Below are positions 7,449 through 49,505 of a stretch of 64,000 nt of DNA, in pieces. Numbering within the stretch: the first letter of the stretch is position 1; each line of letters opens with the position of its first letter. The notes beneath the pieces were generated by a model. The model was given only the letters and a program-made list of their open reading frames with translations. It did not search any database and was not told the DNA's origin. Where the stretch lies: positions 10,335 through 74,334 of IMG/VR virus record IMGVR_UViG_3300034198_017445; one strand, 5' to 3'. The stretch is from a virus. The position numbers and the translations under genes are program-made.

Positions 7449-9792
7449 GAATGCTGAACGCGGCGTAACATTCTTGCTTCGTGCAAAGGCGGATCCTAGC
7501 TCGCGCACCGTCATCGAAAGTTTTGGGCATGATCTAAGTTCGGCGCAGTCGCAAATCGACAAGGCTGTCTCTACGACTGCTCGCAATGTCGAGACGGCTG
7601 TCGATGCCCAAAACGCAAGGACCAAGGCTGCGGTGGATGCTTCGATCTCTGAACGGCAGCGTGCTGTCGATAGGTCGATCAAGGATCAGCAGGAGGCTGA
7701 GGAAAAGGCGCTTAATGATCGCGCTTCGGCGATTCGTCAAAGCGAGTCTAAGATATCGGCTATCGAGATGGACCTTGAAAGCAAGTCTCTTGAGGAACTG
7801 GAGGCTATGCGAGAACAGCGGATTGCGCAGCGTCTTGCAAAGGAGGAGCAGAAGTACCTGGAAGCGATGCAGGCTCGCATTGCTGCGGACAAGGCTTACG
7901 AGCAGATTTCTGACGCTGCTCAAAAACAAACGGTCGAGACGGGTCGTGCGTTGTCGAAGGAAGAAATCGACATCATCAAGCAGATCCAGAAAGCTCGCGA
8001 TACCTTGACTCGCGAGGCAGAGGCTTCTGAAAAGCGATGGACTTCGGTGCAAGAAGCGGAGTCAGAACGGCGCTTAAATTCTGCCATCGTCGAAGCCAAA
8101 AAGAAGAAGTCTGTCCAGGACGAGCAGGACGAGGCTGTCAAGGCGTCGCATGAAAAGGTCGAGAAGCACCTGGAGGACATGAAAAACGCACTCAGCGGCG
8201 CTCTGCTTGCTTCTGGTCAGTTGGCGCGTGGTCTTGCTTTCCTCGGGCTCTCTGGCGAGAAGGAAGTCAATAGGCTCACCGAGGGGATCATTAAGTTGGT
8301 TGGTGCCCTGGATGCGTTTGAGGGTTTTGTTGGCACCGTCATCAAGATCGAAAAAGCGTACCGATCGTGGACGGCTGCAACGGTCGAGCAGGTCGCTGCA
8401 GAGCAATTGCTTGCTGCTGCTCGTGCTGGTGGTTCGGCGGTTGGCGCTGGCGTCTCGGGGGCTACCGGGGCTGTTCAGGCTGGTGCGGCAAAACGGGCTG
8501 GAAGCGCAGCGGCTGGTGGGCTCGTTGGCGAGGGTGTTGGTGGGGTTGCTGGTGGTCTTGCTGGGACTGCGGTTGCTGGCGTCGGAGGAAAAATTGCTGG
8601 CACTGGACCGGTTGCTGGTGCGTTAGCTCGGTTGGCTGCGTTTGGGGATAGAGCGAAGGCTTTTGCTGCTCCTGTTGCTAGGGTCGCAGGAGGTTTGGCT
8701 GCGCGAGTCGCACCACCACTGGCTGCGCTTGCTGGTGGTTATGCGTTAGGAAGCGGAATCAGGAACGCATGGGAGGAGTCGTCGATCGAGGACGATGTTT
8801 GGGGTGGTGCAACGAAGCTAGCCAAGAACGTGATTGATATGCCCACGTTCGGCTGGGGTTCGTACATCATGGGCGAGAAGACTTTCGAGACGTCTCGCGA
8901 TCGCAGACTGAAAAGCGAGGACAAGGATTTCAATCAGCGAACGGAAATCCTGAACGAAAAAAACAAAAGGGACGCGGCTGACGAGGAGTCGCTTGTCGCG
9001 CAGACAAAACAGAAACTCGAAATCCTGGAAGCTCAAGCCCAGGTTGAGAAGCATCTTCATGACCTAAAATTCAAGGACATGACGATCGACGAAAAGCGGC
9101 TGGATCTGACTTCAAGAATCGCCGATGCTACCAAGGAGGCTGCTACCGGAGACGAAAAGTCTCATGCTCGTGTCATCGATCTTTTGAACAAAAAACTGGA
9201 GACTGAGCATGCGATTTACTCCGTTCAAAAGACCGCAGCAGTTGAGCAAGAAAACACCGCTAGAAAATTGCTCGATCTCGCGAACGCTAAACTTGAATCA
9301 GAAAAGTCTGCTCACGAGTCTGCCAAGGAACGCTTTGGTGGGATGTCAGCTAGTGAGCAACAGGAAACGATTGACCTGTTTGCAAAGTTTCAGCAGGATC
9401 CTAAGTCGATGGATCCTGAGGCCATGCGAAAGATGGGCGGTCTTTCGAAGTCTATGGATGCCCAGATCAAGGCTGAGAAGTTACGTCGCGCTGATGCGGC
9501 TGGCTTCGATCGAACGCTGGGTGCCAATGACGTAGCCGAAATCGCAAAGCTGGAGCACGAAATCAAAACCAAGTTGGAGGTCGACGTGCAGGCAAAGGCT
9601 GACGTGAGTGTCAAGCTGACGGCTGACTACGAAGCGATCGCTAAAACTGTAAACGAGCAGATCAAAGCCCAATGGAAAGACGTACTCGACTTGATGGCAA
9701 AACGTGTCATGGAAAACGAGTCGTCTATTCAAGATATCCTTAAAAGATTGAAGGATAGAAACATTCGCCTGACCAATGGAGGTATTCCATAA
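7441..9792 (+). CDS. Tape measure protein
   Basis: 783 aa, coiled-coil with an Ala/Gly-rich central part; canonical position. Confidence 0.85.
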   Translation: MAENAERGVTFLLRAKADPSSRTVIESFGHDLSSAQSQIDKAVSTTARNVETAVDAQNARTKAAVDASISERQRAVDRSIKDQQEAEEKALNDRASAIRQSESKISAIEMDLESKSLEELEAMREQRIAQRLAKEEQKYLEAMQARIAADKAYEQISDAAQKQTVETGRALSKEEIDIIKQIQKARDTLTREAEASEKRWTSVQEAESERRLNSAIVEAKKKKSVQDEQDEAVKASHEKVEKHLEDMKNALSGALLASGQLARGLAFLGLSGEKEVNRLTEGIIKLVGALDAFEGFVGTVIKIEKAYRSWTAATVEQVAAEQLLAAARAGGSAVGAGVSGATGAVQAGAAKRAGSAAAGGLVGEGVGGVAGGLAGTAVAGVGGKIAGTGPVAGALARLAAFGDRAKAFAAPVARVAGGLAARVAPPLAALAGGYALGSGIRNAWEESSIEDDVWGGATKLAKNVIDMPTFGWGSYIMGEKTFETSRDRRLKSEDKDFNQRTEILNEKNKRDAADEESLVAQTKQKLEILEAQAQVEKHLHDLKFKDMTIDEKRLDLTSRIADATKEAATGDEKSHARVIDLLNKKLETEHAIYSVQKTAAVEQENTARKLLDLANAKLESEKSAHESAKERFGGMSASEQQETIDLFAKFQQDPKSMDPEAMRKMGGLSKSMDAQIKAEKLRRADAAGFDRTLGANDVAEIAKLEHEIKTKLEVDVQAKADVSVKLTADYEAIAKTVNEQIKAQWKDVLDLMAKRVMENESSIQDILKRLKDRNIRLTNGGIP

Positions 9793-29732: not shown

Positions 29733-30041
29733 GTGAAGACTACTATTTTGATTGGCGTGTTGTTGGCAGCGGTTCGGATTTGGCTTGGGTTTAACATCGA
29801 GCCTGAATCGTTTCGCTGGGACCAAGTCTTCAAGGACGCGGCGCACTTGTTCATGGGTGGTCTTGCTGTCGCGTGGTGGTTCAATAGGTATGAGCTGACC
29901 GACGAAGACTGGGACGATACCGAGGACAACAGTGCTCTGTTTGAGGCGCTGACGTGGTGTCTTTTGCAACCGTGGCAATGGTGGTTGTTTTGGTCGCTTA
30001 ACGCGATTGAGGTTGCTGTCGCTGTCCTGAGTCGAATCTAG
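29733..30041 (+). CDS. Small membrane protein
   Basis: Hydrophobic segments; GAGG RBS. Confidence 0.55.
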   Translation: MKTTILIGVLLAAVRIWLGFNIEPESFRWDQVFKDAAHLFMGGLAVAWWFNRYELTDEDWDDTEDNSALFEALTWCLLQPWQWWLFWSLNAIEVAVAVLSRI

Positions 30042-30343
30042 CTTGCTCAGCGGCTTTGTTGCGGAGATGGGTCGGTTACGCATGCCTGCTCGGAGGCGTT
30101 GTTTCTGAGGCGATAGACGCGCGTTCGCTTCGTGCCTGTCCTGAGGCTTTGTATCTGGAATAGAAGCCGCTAGTGAACCTGCCTGGAGGTTTTGTTTCCT
30201 TGACGGAATTGAGTCTGGCTTATTGCCTATCAAGCGGCGTAATTGCTTGGAGTGCGATCCATTTGAGCCTGCCATGAGGCTTTGTTTCGTGGACAGGAAT
30301 TCAGCATGATACAATGCCTGCCTAGCGGCTTTGTTGCTGGGAT
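30041..30343 (+). CRISPR. Orphan structure-conserved CRISPR-like array B (7 units)
   Basis: 28-nt units at 30041, 30084, 30134, 30177, 30225, 30267, 30316; consensus GCCTG-N6-GGC-TTTGTT-N6'-NN; spacers 14-22 nt. Confidence 0.8.
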
Positions 30344-30374: not shown

Positions 30375-30938
30375 ATGGCACGAGTAATTCGTTGGCGGTT
30401 TACGAAGGAGGCTGGTACCAATGGATCCAGTTTTAAGGCCGATGCCATAACCCAGGTGATGATCCCTCGGTTCCTGCGGTACTGGGATGTGGATTTCCAG
30501 CAGTTGACAACGATGGCAGGAACGCCACACGTCACGTTTCGGCTGACGACTCGGACGGTCAGTACGATGTGGACGAACGGTCCGGTGATCCATATAAACG
30601 CCAAGTTCAAATGGGGCACTTCGCTCGCGGCGCGTGAGCAAATGGGACTGTGCCTATGTCATGAGGTTGGTCACTGGTTGTCGCCATCGAATCCGATTCA
30701 CGCTGCCAGTGTTGGAAACGTCATGTTCGCTCAGGTTGGCGATCCGTACCTAAATTGGACGCTGGTCGACATGAAGTGGTTTGGCATGCTTCCGTGGCGA
30801 TCCACCTTACGTCCGTGGCACGAGAAAACGCACTGGTATCCCTTACCAAAGGTTGCAATGGGGCTGTCGGGGCATGAAGATCACGAGATTCTGGAGCCTA
30901 TCGTGCTTGGTTGCGGTAAGAATCATCGAAAAAATTGA
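30375..30938 (+). CDS. Zinc metallopeptidase (matrixin-like)
   Basis: CHEVGHWL....H followed by NVM Met-turn. Confidence 0.7.
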   Translation: MARVIRWRFTKEAGTNGSSFKADAITQVMIPRFLRYWDVDFQQLTTMAGTPHVTFRLTTRTVSTMWTNGPVIHINAKFKWGTSLAAREQMGLCLCHEVGHWLSPSNPIHAASVGNVMFAQVGDPYLNWTLVDMKWFGMLPWRSTLRPWHEKTHWYPLPKVAMGLSGHEDHEILEPIVLGCGKNHRKN

Positions 30939-31005
30939 GACGTTTTGGCGTTCGTCTCGGCTTAGTATGTGTGCTTGGTTCTGCTCTTACTTTTGGAGTT
31001 TCAAA

Positions 31006-33499: not shown

Positions 33500-33579
33500 G
33501 CGCTGGCGTGAGACGTTTTGGCGTTCGTCTCGGCTTATGTATTAGTGGTGTTCTGTTTTTCACGTTCTGGAGTCTGGCT

Positions 33580-42604: not shown

Positions 42605-43012
42605 ATGCTTAGTTCGACTTTTGTTCTTGGTGGTAAGGCTGTTTTCACGGTGTCCAATCCTTCCGGCGTGCGATACACGTATCGGGTGAAGGCGAGCAAG
42701 GGGCCAAATCCAAAGTTTTTTGCTCAACTCTTGGCTGGTCCTGACAACACCAGCGATTACGTCTATTTGGGCGTGGTTGATACCTTTTCCGGTTCGGTGC
42801 GGCTTACTGAAAAGTCGAGGATGACCGGGGATTCGCTTCCAGTGAAGGTTCTACGCTGGTCGCTTGGCAAGTGCTGGCAAGGCGGCGATCTTCCTGAAGG
42901 CTACTCGATCCATCATGAGGGTTGCTGTGGTCGCTGCGGTCGGGCGCTCACGGTTCCCGAGTCGGTAGAAAGTGGTTTCGGGCCTGAGTGCATCAAGCTG
43001 GTTGGTGGTTGA
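42605..43012 (+). CDS. DUF6011-like protein
   Basis: LAGPDNTSDY; CGRCGRALTVPESVESGFGPEC. Confidence 0.8.
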   Translation: MLSSTFVLGGKAVFTVSNPSGVRYTYRVKASKGPNPKFFAQLLAGPDNTSDYVYLGVVDTFSGSVRLTEKSRMTGDSLPVKVLRWSLGKCWQGGDLPEGYSIHHEGCCGRCGRALTVPESVESGFGPECIKLVGG

Positions 43013-43397: not shown

Positions 43398-43450
43398 CGG
43401 GCTGGCTGGTTCGGTCGCTGAAAAGATTCCCCAGAAATGACCTTATTTTT

Positions 43451-43555
43451 GTATTTACGGTATTGACGCTAAGTGTTTGGTCGTTAAGATCAATGCATGC
43501 GGACGACGGGGTGTCGGCTGCGGGGTTCGAAGTGAAACGGGAGACGTTGAAAATG
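43451..43555 (+). promoter_or_regulatory. Sigma70-type promoter/leader module, copy 1
   Basis: TTGACG (43463)-N16-TAAGAT (43485); similar to 49404-49505. Confidence 0.75.
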
Positions 43556-46009: not shown

Positions 46010-47758
46010 TTGAGCGTTAAAAACTGGGTCTATGGTGGTAAGGTTCCTACGCCACAAGAGGCTGTCGATGAGGCGATCTTCACGGCGCACAAGTATCGAA
46101 ACAAGCTGTGTGAGTTGGAGCTGGAAAAACGGAAGCGGCACTACGATTTGTTGCGTCGGCTTGCTCCTGAGTTTGTTGCTGCTGAGGAAACGGTCGCGAC
46201 GTTGGAGGCGGCGCTGGGTGCCTGTCGCGAAAAGATCCAAGCGGAACGGGTGAAGCAGCGGACGAAAACTCCGACTGGGTGCAAGACCTGGATTGCCGAA
46301 AGTGCGGACATCAAATCGCGGTTAAAAGATGCGCGTGCAGTCTTGAAGGCTGCGAAGCATGCGGCTTACGATGATCCTGCTGTCAAGGCTGCGATGGATG
46401 CGAACAGCGAGCAGCATAAATCCGAGTGTGCTCAAGCCAAGCAGGAGTCCGGGCTGTACTGGGGGACCGAAGCGGTGATCCGTGATTCGTGTCGATCGTT
46501 TGCGAGTGGTGCTCCACCGAAGTTTGCGCGGTATGAAGGGCGCGGTCAGTTGGCTGTCCAAGTCCAAGGCGGGATGGATTGTTCCAAGGCGATCGATGAG
46601 AACACGTTGGTCTACATCGTTGGCGAGGGTCGGAAGCGAACGGCAAAGGTTCGCATTGCTTCGGACGGTGGGCGACCGGTGTTCGCGGATCTACCGATCG
46701 TGTTCCATCGGGACTTGCCTGACGGCGCTATCAAGTGGGCGTTCCTGCAGAAGCGGATGCGTGCGAACAAACCGAAGTACAGCTTGCGTCTTGCGATCGA
46801 CGTTGCTGATCCTGTCGATGTGCAGGTTCCTCCGGGTGAGGTTGCGATTCACGTCGGCTGGCGAAAGCACGGGGACGGATTAAAGGTCGTGACTTGGCTC
46901 GGGAGCGACGGCGAGAAAGGTTCGCTCGTGCTTCCGGCTTCTCATTGCGAGGACTATCTCAAGCTGGACAAAATCAAGTCGGAGCGTGACATCGAATTCG
47001 GAAAGGCGATTGATCATTTGCGTGGGTGGCTGGAGTGTCGTGGCGATGTGCCTGAGTTCTTGGAGGAGGTTCGATCGCACTTGCATGCGTGGAAGTCTCA
47101 GAAGCGGTTGGCTGCTCTCGTGGTGGCTTGGCGCGATGCTCGCTTCGATCCGTGGGATATTGATATTTTCGAGTACCTGGAGGCGTGGCGAAAGAAGGAC
47201 AAGCATGCATGGCAGCACGATGCTCGGTTGCGGGAGCGAATCGCTGGTCGTCGCAAAACGATCTACCAGACGTTTCTGTGTGGTCTTGCTCGGAGGTACG
47301 GAGTGGCGATCGTTGCTCCGATCGATGCGAAGGAGTTGACCGAAAACAGCGAGCCAGAAGACTTGACGGCGGATCCAACGTTGCAGCATCGGCGTGCGAA
47401 GTGGGCTGCTGTATCGACGCTGATTCAGTACGCTCGCGAAAAATGGCCTGAACGCTGCATCGAAGTGGACGGTGCGAACATGAGTCGCCAGTGCATGCGG
47501 TGCGGTCACGTCAACGAACCGCAAGGCAAGCGGGTGCAGTGCCATGGTTGCGGTGCTACTTGGGATGTGGACATCAACGCGGCTACGGTTATGCTCGAAC
47601 GTGGTCAGGCTGCGGCGCGTGATGGTGCTCTTGATGCGTTGGTTGAAGCGAAGGAAAAGAAAGCCGAGGCTGCTCGCGAGAAACTTGCAAAGATGATACA
47701 GGCGCGGCGTGATGCTTCTGCTCGCAAGCGTGCTGAGATGGAGGGCAGCGAGGCTTAG
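46010..47758 (+). CDS. Cas12m (type V-M)/TnpB-like RNA-guided protein, RuvC probably inactive
   Basis: AHKYRNKLCELE, long coiled coil, GLYWGT, PPKFARYEGRGQLAVQVQGG; RuvC-I VAIHVGWR (His for Asp); no Glu at RuvC-II (IVAPID); Zn finger CMRC/CHGC; RuvC-III DVDINAA. Confidence 0.85.
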   Translation: MSVKNWVYGGKVPTPQEAVDEAIFTAHKYRNKLCELELEKRKRHYDLLRRLAPEFVAAEETVATLEAALGACREKIQAERVKQRTKTPTGCKTWIAESADIKSRLKDARAVLKAAKHAAYDDPAVKAAMDANSEQHKSECAQAKQESGLYWGTEAVIRDSCRSFASGAPPKFARYEGRGQLAVQVQGGMDCSKAIDENTLVYIVGEGRKRTAKVRIASDGGRPVFADLPIVFHRDLPDGAIKWAFLQKRMRANKPKYSLRLAIDVADPVDVQVPPGEVAIHVGWRKHGDGLKVVTWLGSDGEKGSLVLPASHCEDYLKLDKIKSERDIEFGKAIDHLRGWLECRGDVPEFLEEVRSHLHAWKSQKRLAALVVAWRDARFDPWDIDIFEYLEAWRKKDKHAWQHDARLRERIAGRRKTIYQTFLCGLARRYGVAIVAPIDAKELTENSEPEDLTADPTLQHRRAKWAAVSTLIQYAREKWPERCIEVDGANMSRQCMRCGHVNEPQGKRVQCHGCGATWDVDINAATVMLERGQAAARDGALDALVEAKEKKAEAAREKLAKMIQARRDASARKRAEMEGSEA

Positions 47759-47768
47759 GGTATGGTTC

Positions 47769-49351
47769 TCCTGCTCATGGGAGTTGTTCATGAGATAATG
47801 ATCTGGAATATGCTAATGCCTATCAATCGGCTTTGTTGCTTGAAGACGAACTATGTGGCTGATCGGTGCCATCGTTACCGAAAATATGGGTCTGTTGCGT
47901 TATCGCCAATCGCGAGGCTTTGTTTCGCTGATATCGATGCAGTTCACCGCCTGCTCGGAGGCTTTGTTTTCGAGATACAACGACGTGGTTGCTTTTGATT
48001 TTATGCCTGCTAGGTGGCATCGTTACATTGGCTCGAACTTGAATTTCATTCATTGCGTGCGATGGGGCATCATTCCATTGACATACCCGTAAGCCTGCTC
48101 GGAGGCGTTATATCGGAGACAAAAAGCATACGGGGAGACTATTTGGACTGCGATTGATTTGCCTGTCGTGAGGCGTCGTATCGCGAAAACGAGATTGATC
48201 ACATGATTCCGCCTGCGGACCGGCTTCGTTGGTCCGGCGCAAGGACATCGTTGCCTGCTCAGAGGCATTGTGTCTGAGACGTTCGCGAGAACTTCGATCT
48301 GTCGCCTGCCATGAGGCTTTGTGTCATGGACGGAGTCCATAATGCCCGAAAGTGAAACCAAAAACATACCGATCAGCTCGGTCACAAATGCTCTGTGGGA
48401 GTGCCGTGATTGCGGCTGCGAGTCGAGCGATGTGTACTGGTTCAGTTGTTTGGGTGCGAGGCTCAAGAAGCCGAGGTGCGCGTGCTGCCATGAGAAGGCG
48501 GTCGTCTCTGGTTCGTCTGTTTACGAAGAAGGGACTATTGAAATGTCTGGTTGCCAGCAACGGGTGTACGGTAGGCATGTTCGGGGAATCTACTTGTTTC
48601 GGGAGGAGAAGTAACTTGCTTGTGCCTGTTCGGAGGCATCGTATCCGTGACGACCACTGTTTTACCCGCCTGCGCTGGGGCGTCGTTTCGGTGAGTGTGA
48701 CTACACAATCTCCTGCGCGGTGGAGTTGTAACCGTGGCCAGATTAGCGATTTTGCTTTAAGCCTGCATGGAGGCATCGTATCTATGACCCCATTGTGCCG
48801 TGTTCATTGCCTGCTCGGAGGCGTCGTATCCGAGATGAAACATTTGCTATCTCGTTTTCATTGCCTACCGTGAGGCGTTGTTTCATGGATCCGACCATAG
48901 CTTCCGGCGTGGCTTTGTAGCGTCGATGGCCTGATTGCGTGCGCCTGCTTGGAGGCTTTGTTTCCTTGGCTCAATACGATCAGTGAGAATTTTGCCTGCT
49001 CAGTGGCGTTGTAACTGCGATCCAGGATTTGGTTGGCGTATCGCCTGCTTGGAGGCTTCGTTTCCTGAACATGATGCATCGCTGCTCAGTGCCTGCTCAG
49101 CGGCTTTGTTGCTGGGATGAAAAGTCACTTTGCCATCTATCGCCTGCGGACCGGCGTGGCTGGTTCGACGTCAGCCATTTTTTGTAATCGTCACGAAACT
49201 GTTTCATGACGGTTTTGTCCTGCGCATCGGACTTGTTGGTGCGACAACGCGGAAAATGTGGAAAGTATTGATGGTGCTCGGATGAAATTGGAATCGTCAC
49301 GAAACTATTCTGTGACGTGTTTTGCCTGCTCGGAGGCTTTGTATCCGTGAC
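47769..49351 (+). CRISPR. Structure-conserved CRISPR-like array A (26 units, split by a small ORF)
   Basis: 28-nt units at 47769, 47818, 47857, 47905, 47949, 48005, 48055, 48093, 48161, 48211, 48253, 48304, 48624, 48668, 48711, 48761, 48809, 48863, 48900, 48943, 48994, 49043, 49091, 49142, 49218, 49324; covarying stem and pseudoknot. Confidence 0.85.
48342..48614 (+). CDS. Small Cys-rich zinc-finger-like protein embedded in array A
   Basis: GGAG RBS; CRDC...CACC; fills the gap between units 12 and 13. Confidence 0.6.
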   Translation: MPESETKNIPISSVTNALWECRDCGCESSDVYWFSCLGARLKKPRCACCHEKAVVSGSSVYEEGTIEMSGCQQRVYGRHVRGIYLFREEK

Positions 49352-49403
49352 AGGTAGCTCTAGCAGACCGCCAAATTCGAGCGATAAAATACTCCAAGTT
49401 TCC

Positions 49404-49505
49404 GTATTTACTGTATTGACGCGAAGTGTCCGGTCGTTAACATGGACACATGCGAACGACGGGGTGTCGAACGCGGGGCTGGTTCAAACGGGAGACTGGA
49501 AAATG
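49404..49505 (+). promoter_or_regulatory. Sigma70-type promoter/leader module, copy 2
   Basis: TTGACG (49416)-N16-TAACAT (49438); GACGGGGTGTCG; AACGGGAG. Confidence 0.75.

Follow-up and report, generated by a model that had tools for sequence, protein, structure and literature searches.

Joint changes in the diverged repeats of a phage-borne Cas12m array point to selection on the fold of the RNA handle

Introduction

In virus record IMGVR_UViG_3300034198_017445 a 28-nt unit recurs beside a gene for a Cas12-type protein, and in several of its copies the two strands of a 3-bp helix, P and P', have changed together. Are such joint changes a mark of selection on an RNA fold, or could they arise by chance and shared ancestry in a dead array that is decaying? 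A sequence-only reading of this DNA had favoured the former, taking the unit for a Cas12 handle that folds by a tertiary contact. The window, i.e., the whole stretch of 64,000 nucleotides that was analysed, makes up most of the 74,334-bp record, which CheckV rates as complete.

Results

Two arrays of a diverged 28-nt unit

The unit is present 33 times on the plus strand, 26 times in a main array that starts 11 nt past the stop codon of cas12m and seven times in a second array about 16 kb upstream of that gene:

46010..47758, plus strand: cas12m, 582 aa, type V-M effector with His at RuvC-I, assigned from Pfam, PDB-sequence and structure matches
47769..49351, plus strand: main array, 26 diverged 28-nt handle units
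30041..30343, plus strand: second array, 7 units between two plus-strand genes
48343..48614, plus strand: 90-aa Cys-rich ORF inside the main array, between units 12 and 13

All 33 units align without gaps and share one layout, P (3 nt), L1 (2 nt), S2a (6 nt), P' (3 nt), L3 (6 nt) and S2b (6 nt), followed by an A and usually a C; L1 is usually TG and L3 follows the pattern xTxGTx. P pairs with P' and S2a with S2b, forming an H-type pseudoknot.

What is unusual here is the array: its repeats are all different, its period is about that of one mature crRNA, it encloses a gene, and neither cas1 nor cas2 was found in the complete 74-kb genome. Pairwise identity between units averages only 62%, the longest exact stretch common to any two of them is 20 nt and all 33 differ in their S2 arm pairs, so that the near-identical direct repeats of a canonical CRISPR array are lacking. 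Nor do the inter-unit segments have the regular length of canonical spacers, as they range from 9 to 78 nt (median 20.5), with 10 of 30 below 17 nt and three of only 9-11 nt. A unit and a median segment together come to about 48 nt, close to the ~50 nt of a mature Cas12m crRNA. Start-to-start spacing in the main array is 37-106 nt, except for one gap of 320 nt that holds the Cys-rich ORF, which starts 12 nt after the end of unit 48304, ends 9 nt before unit 48624 and is matched by nothing in Pfam, NCBIfam or PHROGs. Rfam gave no match at gathering thresholds.

P and P' change together

The 3-bp helix, formed by columns 3-5 with 14-16 of the 33-unit alignment, is GCC/GGC in 25 of the 33 units, which bears out the description of this pair as the usual one. 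The other units carry TCC/GGA (three), GCT/GGC (two), GGC/GCC, ACC/GGT or GCG/GGC (one each), every variant lying where the sequence-only reading had placed it:

47769..47796, plus strand: TCC/GGA unit, U-A replacing G-C at pair 1
48711..48738, plus strand: TCC/GGA unit
49218..49245, plus strand: TCC/GGA unit
47857..47884, plus strand: GGC/GCC unit, middle pair C-G flipped to G-C; also in the terminal repeats of a relative, L017
30177..30204, plus strand: ACC/GGT unit, A-U replacing G-C
30041..30068, plus strand: GCT/GGC unit, U.G wobble
48900..48927, plus strand: GCT/GGC unit, U.G wobble, with L1 = TC rather than TG
48055..48082, plus strand: GCG/GGC unit, with the only unpaired cell; the spacer that follows, of 10 nt, is the second shortest in the array

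Hence 98 of the 99 P/P' cells pair. This pairing played no part in picking the units, which came from a scan for S2 pairing plus the loop signature and from a covariance model limited to the 6-bp stem. In column shuffles 90.6% of the cells of the 3-bp helix pair, compared to 99.0% observed, and 0.3 cells are expected to be changed on both sides, compared to five observed; none of 500 shuffles reached either observed value. Sliding the P' partner by 1-3 columns left only 34-55% of the cells paired, and when whole P' triplets were re-dealt among the copies the observed pairing was never reached in 200,000 trials. The exact probability of the P/P' concordance is ~2e-7, and ~4e-5 when the three TCC/GGA units are taken as a single event. 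These three copies could share one origin, in which case the independent compensatory events in the window may be as few as three. The joint switches are thus real, but the three TCC/GGA copies may not be independent.

An extension of the small helix to 4-5 bp is unsupported, as pairing in columns 2-17 is 61% where 45% is expected and that in columns 1-18 does not exceed expectation. Scans of IMG/VR for TCC/GGA, TCC/GGC and GCC/GGA units beside a normal unit returned zero for each, which is uninformative either way.

The whole fold is conserved as an RNA on the plus strand

Covariation is seen at each of the six S2 pairs; 91% of the cells are paired even though the S2 columns are only 45% identical between units, and RNAalifold independently recovers this helix. 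Over the whole pseudoknot 93.9% of the cells are paired vs 68.9% in shuffles (0 of 500 shuffles reached the observed value) and 73 cells are changed on both sides vs 21. Among the paired cells 23 are of the G.U type and one is of the A.C type, indicating that the fold is that of an RNA read from the plus strand and disfavouring a DNA palindrome.

A covariance model restricted to S2 found the same 33 copies at 26.4-40.5 bits and no half-broken copy, the best of the remaining hits reaching 13 bits in the genome as a whole and 6.6 bits inside the arrays. As to single bases, the G that opens P' and the T of L3 are found in all 33 units, the G of L1 and the trailing A are each kept in 28 and the terminal C in 17; no covariation of the L1 G with the trailing A was found. 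The joint changes beyond chance, the covariation of the 6-bp helix and the lack of half-broken copies together support the view, put forward in the sequence-only reading, that P and P' change together under selection on an RNA fold rather than through decay of a dead array.

The adjacent gene and its product

Only one such cas12m gene is present in the 74-kb genome. Its product carries a Cas12f1-like_TNB domain (Pfam, E 9e-9) and matches Cas12m of PDB entry 23vw (E 3.5e-45, residues 21-532 against 38-571), Cas12m2 (8hhl; E 7e-32, protein identity about 24%) and GoCas12m (8pm4; E 3.6e-25). An AlphaFold model (pLDDT 88) aligns by Foldseek with 8hhl at a TM of 0.74 and with 8pm4 at 0.75, whereas no Cas12f or TnpB entry exceeds 0.45; this places it with the Cas12m fold (WED domain, long helical REC, RuvC with an insertion and zinc-finger TNB). 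Judged by these matches and the model, the 582-aa product is the type V-M effector Cas12m.

Residues H233 and R234 align with His269 and Arg270 of Cas12m2; among 27 homologues R234 never varies and H233 is at least 90% conserved. The RuvC-I residue H281 lies opposite a His of Cas12m2 and an Asp of 23vw and is invariant in the 27 homologues, as are D519 and D521 of RuvC-III. At RuvC-II (47315-47335, residues 436-442) A436/P437 occupy the place of D485 of Cas12m2 and of a Glu of 23vw; D439, the acid closest by, falls short of 90% conservation in the clade. These alignments suggest that the phage Cas12m is probably non-cutting, i.e., nuclease-dead.

The handle in related loci

A first scan of viral contigs with the single Cas12m protein as query returned no relative. 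Homologues of cas12m at E 1e-10 or better number 90, the closest being P0002 and P0003 (66% and 64% identity), and the loci of about 20 of the 90 were examined. Most of these relatives have an ordinary array straight after cas12m, with a 36-nt near-identical repeat and a period of ~72 nt. The last 28 nt of their repeat are the handle, usually with GCC/GGC, and the conserved 8 nt at its 5' end, where the relatives presumably cut, are gone in the units of the window.

The 3-bp helix also varies among the relatives, being AGA/TCT in virus Rctr197k and GGT/GCC in L016. In the otherwise homogeneous array of L017, GGT/ACC gives way to GGC/GCC in the terminal repeats (8181-8413), a case of compensation inside a single array. 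When the 81 units from the window and 14 related loci are pooled, 99.6% of the cells of the helix pair, 41 cells are double-changed, and each of the three pairs has changes on both sides. TCC/GGA and ACC/GGT were seen in none of the related loci examined.

One related locus, L018 (JBGSIY010000981.1), has a 44% identical cas12m and a three-repeat array on a 14.9-kb contig that was binned into a Pirellulaceae MAG, a weak hint that phages of this group may infect planctomycetes.

Searches for protospacers

Searches for protospacers, made with the short putative guides, gave no match above chance in the four sets covered. Within the phage genome itself no match was longer than those of shuffled controls, save for an internal 14-mer duplication; the best hit in GenBank phages had an E of 6, the 31 related loci gave one 13-mer, at chance level, and in one Pirellulaceae MAG all E values were 0.57 or more.

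Other sequence features around the arrays

Near the end of the main array a 55-nt duplication (49182-49236 and 49288-49342, 73% identical) spans the 3' portions of a pair of long segments between units and contains a small hairpin (CGTCA...TGACG in one copy and CGTCAC...GTGACG in the other) that is distinct from the Cas12m handle. We considered whether units 49218 (TCC/GGA) and 49324 (GCC/GGC) are sister copies made by this duplication and rejected it, since by eye the two units differ far more than the duplicated part of the spacers; the duplication therefore probably stops at the unit border. A terminator-like hairpin followed by TTTTTTG lies at 49156-49185, overlapping the 3' arm of unit 49142, with units 49218 and 49324 beyond it; the count of such terminator-like sites is not above shuffled expectation.

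An 80-nt direct repeat (43446-43525 and 49399-49478, 81% identical) contains TTGACG-N16-TAACAT, its second copy lies just past the array, and it may be a promoter module of the phage. Elsewhere, 30936-30964 and 33509-33537 carry the same 29 nt, with a GAGACG...CGTCTC hairpin inside them, and a third copy, 72% identical, lies at 42778-42806.

Discussion

Based on our data we propose, with a probability of roughly 0.85, that the 28-nt unit is the crRNA scaffold of the phage's own Cas12m, that it has diverged under structural constraint and that the P/P' changes are compensatory. The solved Cas12m2 complex of Mycolicibacterium mucogenicum (8HHL/8HHM/8HIO; Omura et al. 2023, PMC10442227) offers a direct counterpart. 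Its scaffold has a stem, a flipped-out A(-24), a non-canonical G(-23):A(-2) pair, a helix in which C(-22..-17) pairs with G(-8..-3), and a terminal C(-1). The phage unit has the same elements in the same order: the 5' strand of the stem, a flipped-out base, a G that pairs with A(-2), a 6-bp PK, the 3' strand of the stem, a loop, the 3' strand of the PK, an A and a C. P/P' would thus be the stem, the T of L1 the flipped-out base, the G of L1 with the trailing A the G:A pair, S2 the PK and the final C the C(-1). The protein folds are alike (TM 0.74) and both proteins have His at RuvC-I. The two systems differ in that the loop is 1 nt longer in the phage unit, the bearer is a phage, and the phage repeats are all different, whereas those of Cas12m2 are identical.

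The name 'Cas12 handle' given in the sequence-only reading is therefore borne out by the adjacent gene and by this element-by-element match; its 'pseudoknot' label for P/P' needs amending, as the 3-bp helix is real and yet is called the 'stem' in the Cas12m2 paper, where 'PK' denotes the 6-bp helix. Since cryo-EM had already shown how the Cas12m handle folds, the natural covariation confirms this fold and does not reveal it.

The pattern of conservation fits the mapping, since the helices vary freely as pairs, whereas the L1 G, the trailing A and the C are kept. In Cas12m2 the protein grips both helices via the sugar-phosphate backbone, and base-specific reading, by His269 and Arg270, is limited to the G:A pair and C(-1) (PMC10442227). 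In the phage system the stem and the 6-bp pseudoknot helix lie directly 5' of the putative guide and covary in the window and in relatives; the conserved G and terminal A-C stand together with the His and Arg of the WED domain that would read them, and family-wide G7 and A29 are at least 90% conserved. If the helices are held by their backbone they would accept any pair while unmatched changes are purged, which would explain why P and P' change together. As the genome lacks cas1 and cas2, the repeats would not be renewed by copying, and each unit would drift alone under the constraint of the fold, giving 33 repeats with one fold.

In the mechanism that we propose the arrays would be transcribed with the flanking plus-strand genes and each 28-nt unit would fold with its 3-bp P/P' helix stacked on the 6-bp S2 helix, the T of L1 flipped out, a G:A pair formed and a terminal C placed before the guide. 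Cas12m would bind each handle and trim the transcript, and the 9-28-nt segments that follow most units would act as guides. The protein would then bind DNA without cutting it, as suggested by the His at RuvC-I, shared with Cas12m2, and by a RuvC-II acid that is not in the aligned place. Any Watson-Crick or G.U pair would be acceptable in the helices, and a single unmatched change would weaken the fold and be removed by selection.

Could the fold be under selection in units that are not guides? They might be decoys for a host Cas12m in the manner of RNA anti-CRISPRs, sites at which the phage Cas12m cuts or marks the phage's own transcripts, or autoregulatory crRNA-like RNAs. Such roles are in keeping with the irregular segments, a third of which are shorter than the 17-bp heteroduplex of Cas12m2 (PMC10442227), with the lack of a protospacer in the searched sets, and with the placement of the second array between two plus-strand genes and of an ORF inside the main array. 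Relatives L007 (3975-4004), L008 and L009, 54% identical, have a single lone handle after cas12m, then an ORF and no array. The short segments, the lack of targets and the unconserved 5' part of the repeat leave some room for a non-guide role, which we nevertheless regard as unlikely: a unit with its median segment has the size of a mature Cas12m crRNA, close relatives have the same handle in ordinary spacer-bearing arrays, and the phage has retained a cas12m of its own, including the residues that would read the handle.

If the segments are guides, what would they be for? Tentatively, and with appreciable doubt, we suggest that the arrays form a hard-wired set of guides that is not updated and in which each unit has been kept for long, so that a probably nuclease-dead Cas12m would silence fixed genes of the host or of competitors via units of ~48 nt and perhaps time the embedded gene. 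As no two units share more than 20 nt, homologous recombination could not collapse such an array, and the scrambling of the repeats might itself have been favoured; engineered guide arrays without repetition would then have a natural parallel in this locus.

A different origin of the variety, by recombination with the arrays of other phages in which the compensatory changes had arisen, would account for the recurrence of GGC/GCC in L017 and of a CTCAGC arm in L007 and L030. We consider it quite improbable, as all 33 units differ in their S2 arm pairs and the TCC/GGA and ACC/GGT variants are absent from the related loci examined; in any event, import still needs selection on the same fold.

The view of a dead, decaying array, in which matched changes reflect chance or shared ancestry, draws on the low identity of the repeats and the lack of adaptation genes. 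It is already contradicted by the counts and we give it very little credence, since the observed pairing lies outside all 200,000 shuffles and stays improbable when the events are reduced to three, the 6-bp helix is kept paired at low column identity, and no copy scores between 13 and 26.4 bits. That the element acts as DNA, e.g., as a protein-binding palindrome, or as a minus-strand RNA is hardly credible: inverted repeats can also be DNA sites, but the excess of G.T-type over A.C-type cells would be tolerable in neither, and it is the complementarity of the arms, in a pseudoknot topology, and not their sequence that is conserved.

The covariation thus provides clean evidence, from within one genome, for recognition of the Cas12m handle by its shape, and it can be read as a tolerance map. 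Both helices, of 3 and 6 bp, accept any pair, the first G of P' and the second loop base T are fixed, and little variation is seen at the L1 G, the G-T of the loop or the A that follows the second arm; with the help of such a map, Cas12m guide arrays without repetition could be designed for multiplex repression or base editing. Moreover, a CRISPR-type locus can evidently persist with no two repeats alike. As finders based on repeat identity are expected to miss such arrays, phage-borne Cas12m systems may be under-counted.

Cas12m of phages or prophages has been mentioned in the literature, e.g., with an ordinary array in the MV-1 myxophage (preprint 10.64898/2026.09.14.751636), and in a limited check of the literature we found no published Cas12m array in which all repeats differ and the fold is kept. 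GoCas12m (8PM4; Bigelyte et al. 2024, PMC11013384) has a repeat-derived triplex-pseudoknot core of ~30 nt and a crRNA of about 50 nt, uses no tracrRNA and binds DNA without cutting it. The arrays of GoCas12m and other bacterial type V-M systems have highly conserved repeats and regular spacers, whereas the window array has neither. The 5' handle pseudoknot of Cas12a and the triplex-PK core of the TnpB omega-RNA differ from the window system in sequence, size and protein. RNA anti-CRISPRs (Racr), whose repeat copies imitate the CRISPR repeat of the host, belong to phages without the cognate effector, whereas here cas12m lies beside the array. TIGR-Tas arrays (bioRxiv 10.64898/2026.09.09.750476) are reported to be guide arrays whose repeats lack sequence conservation; their protein family and RNA architecture are unrelated to those of the window system, and the likeness is only one of analogy.

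Close counterparts are the canonical Cas12m arrays of other phages (Rctr197k, KX853510; the IMG/VR and metagenome loci L002, L003, L010, L012-L014 and L016-L018; the MV-1 myxophage), which have the same layout of gene followed by array and the same 28-nt handle; their repeats are 36 nt long and near-identical with a period of ~72 nt, whereas in the window the period is ~48 nt and every repeat is different. The phage contigs L023, L025, L030 and L031 contain diverged, compacted sections in which the S2 arms differ and yet pair at 5-6 of 6 positions, with the spacing down to 44-76 nt. In L025 (2293-5314, minus strand) an array with a 72-nt period runs into ~19 such diverged units, at a spacing of 48-76 nt and with S2 paired at 5-6 of 6 positions. 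In L025 and L031 the diverged section follows an ordinary one, whereas in the phage described here both arrays are wholly diverged. Diverged sections that keep their pairing in four relatives indicate that this pattern is recurrent.
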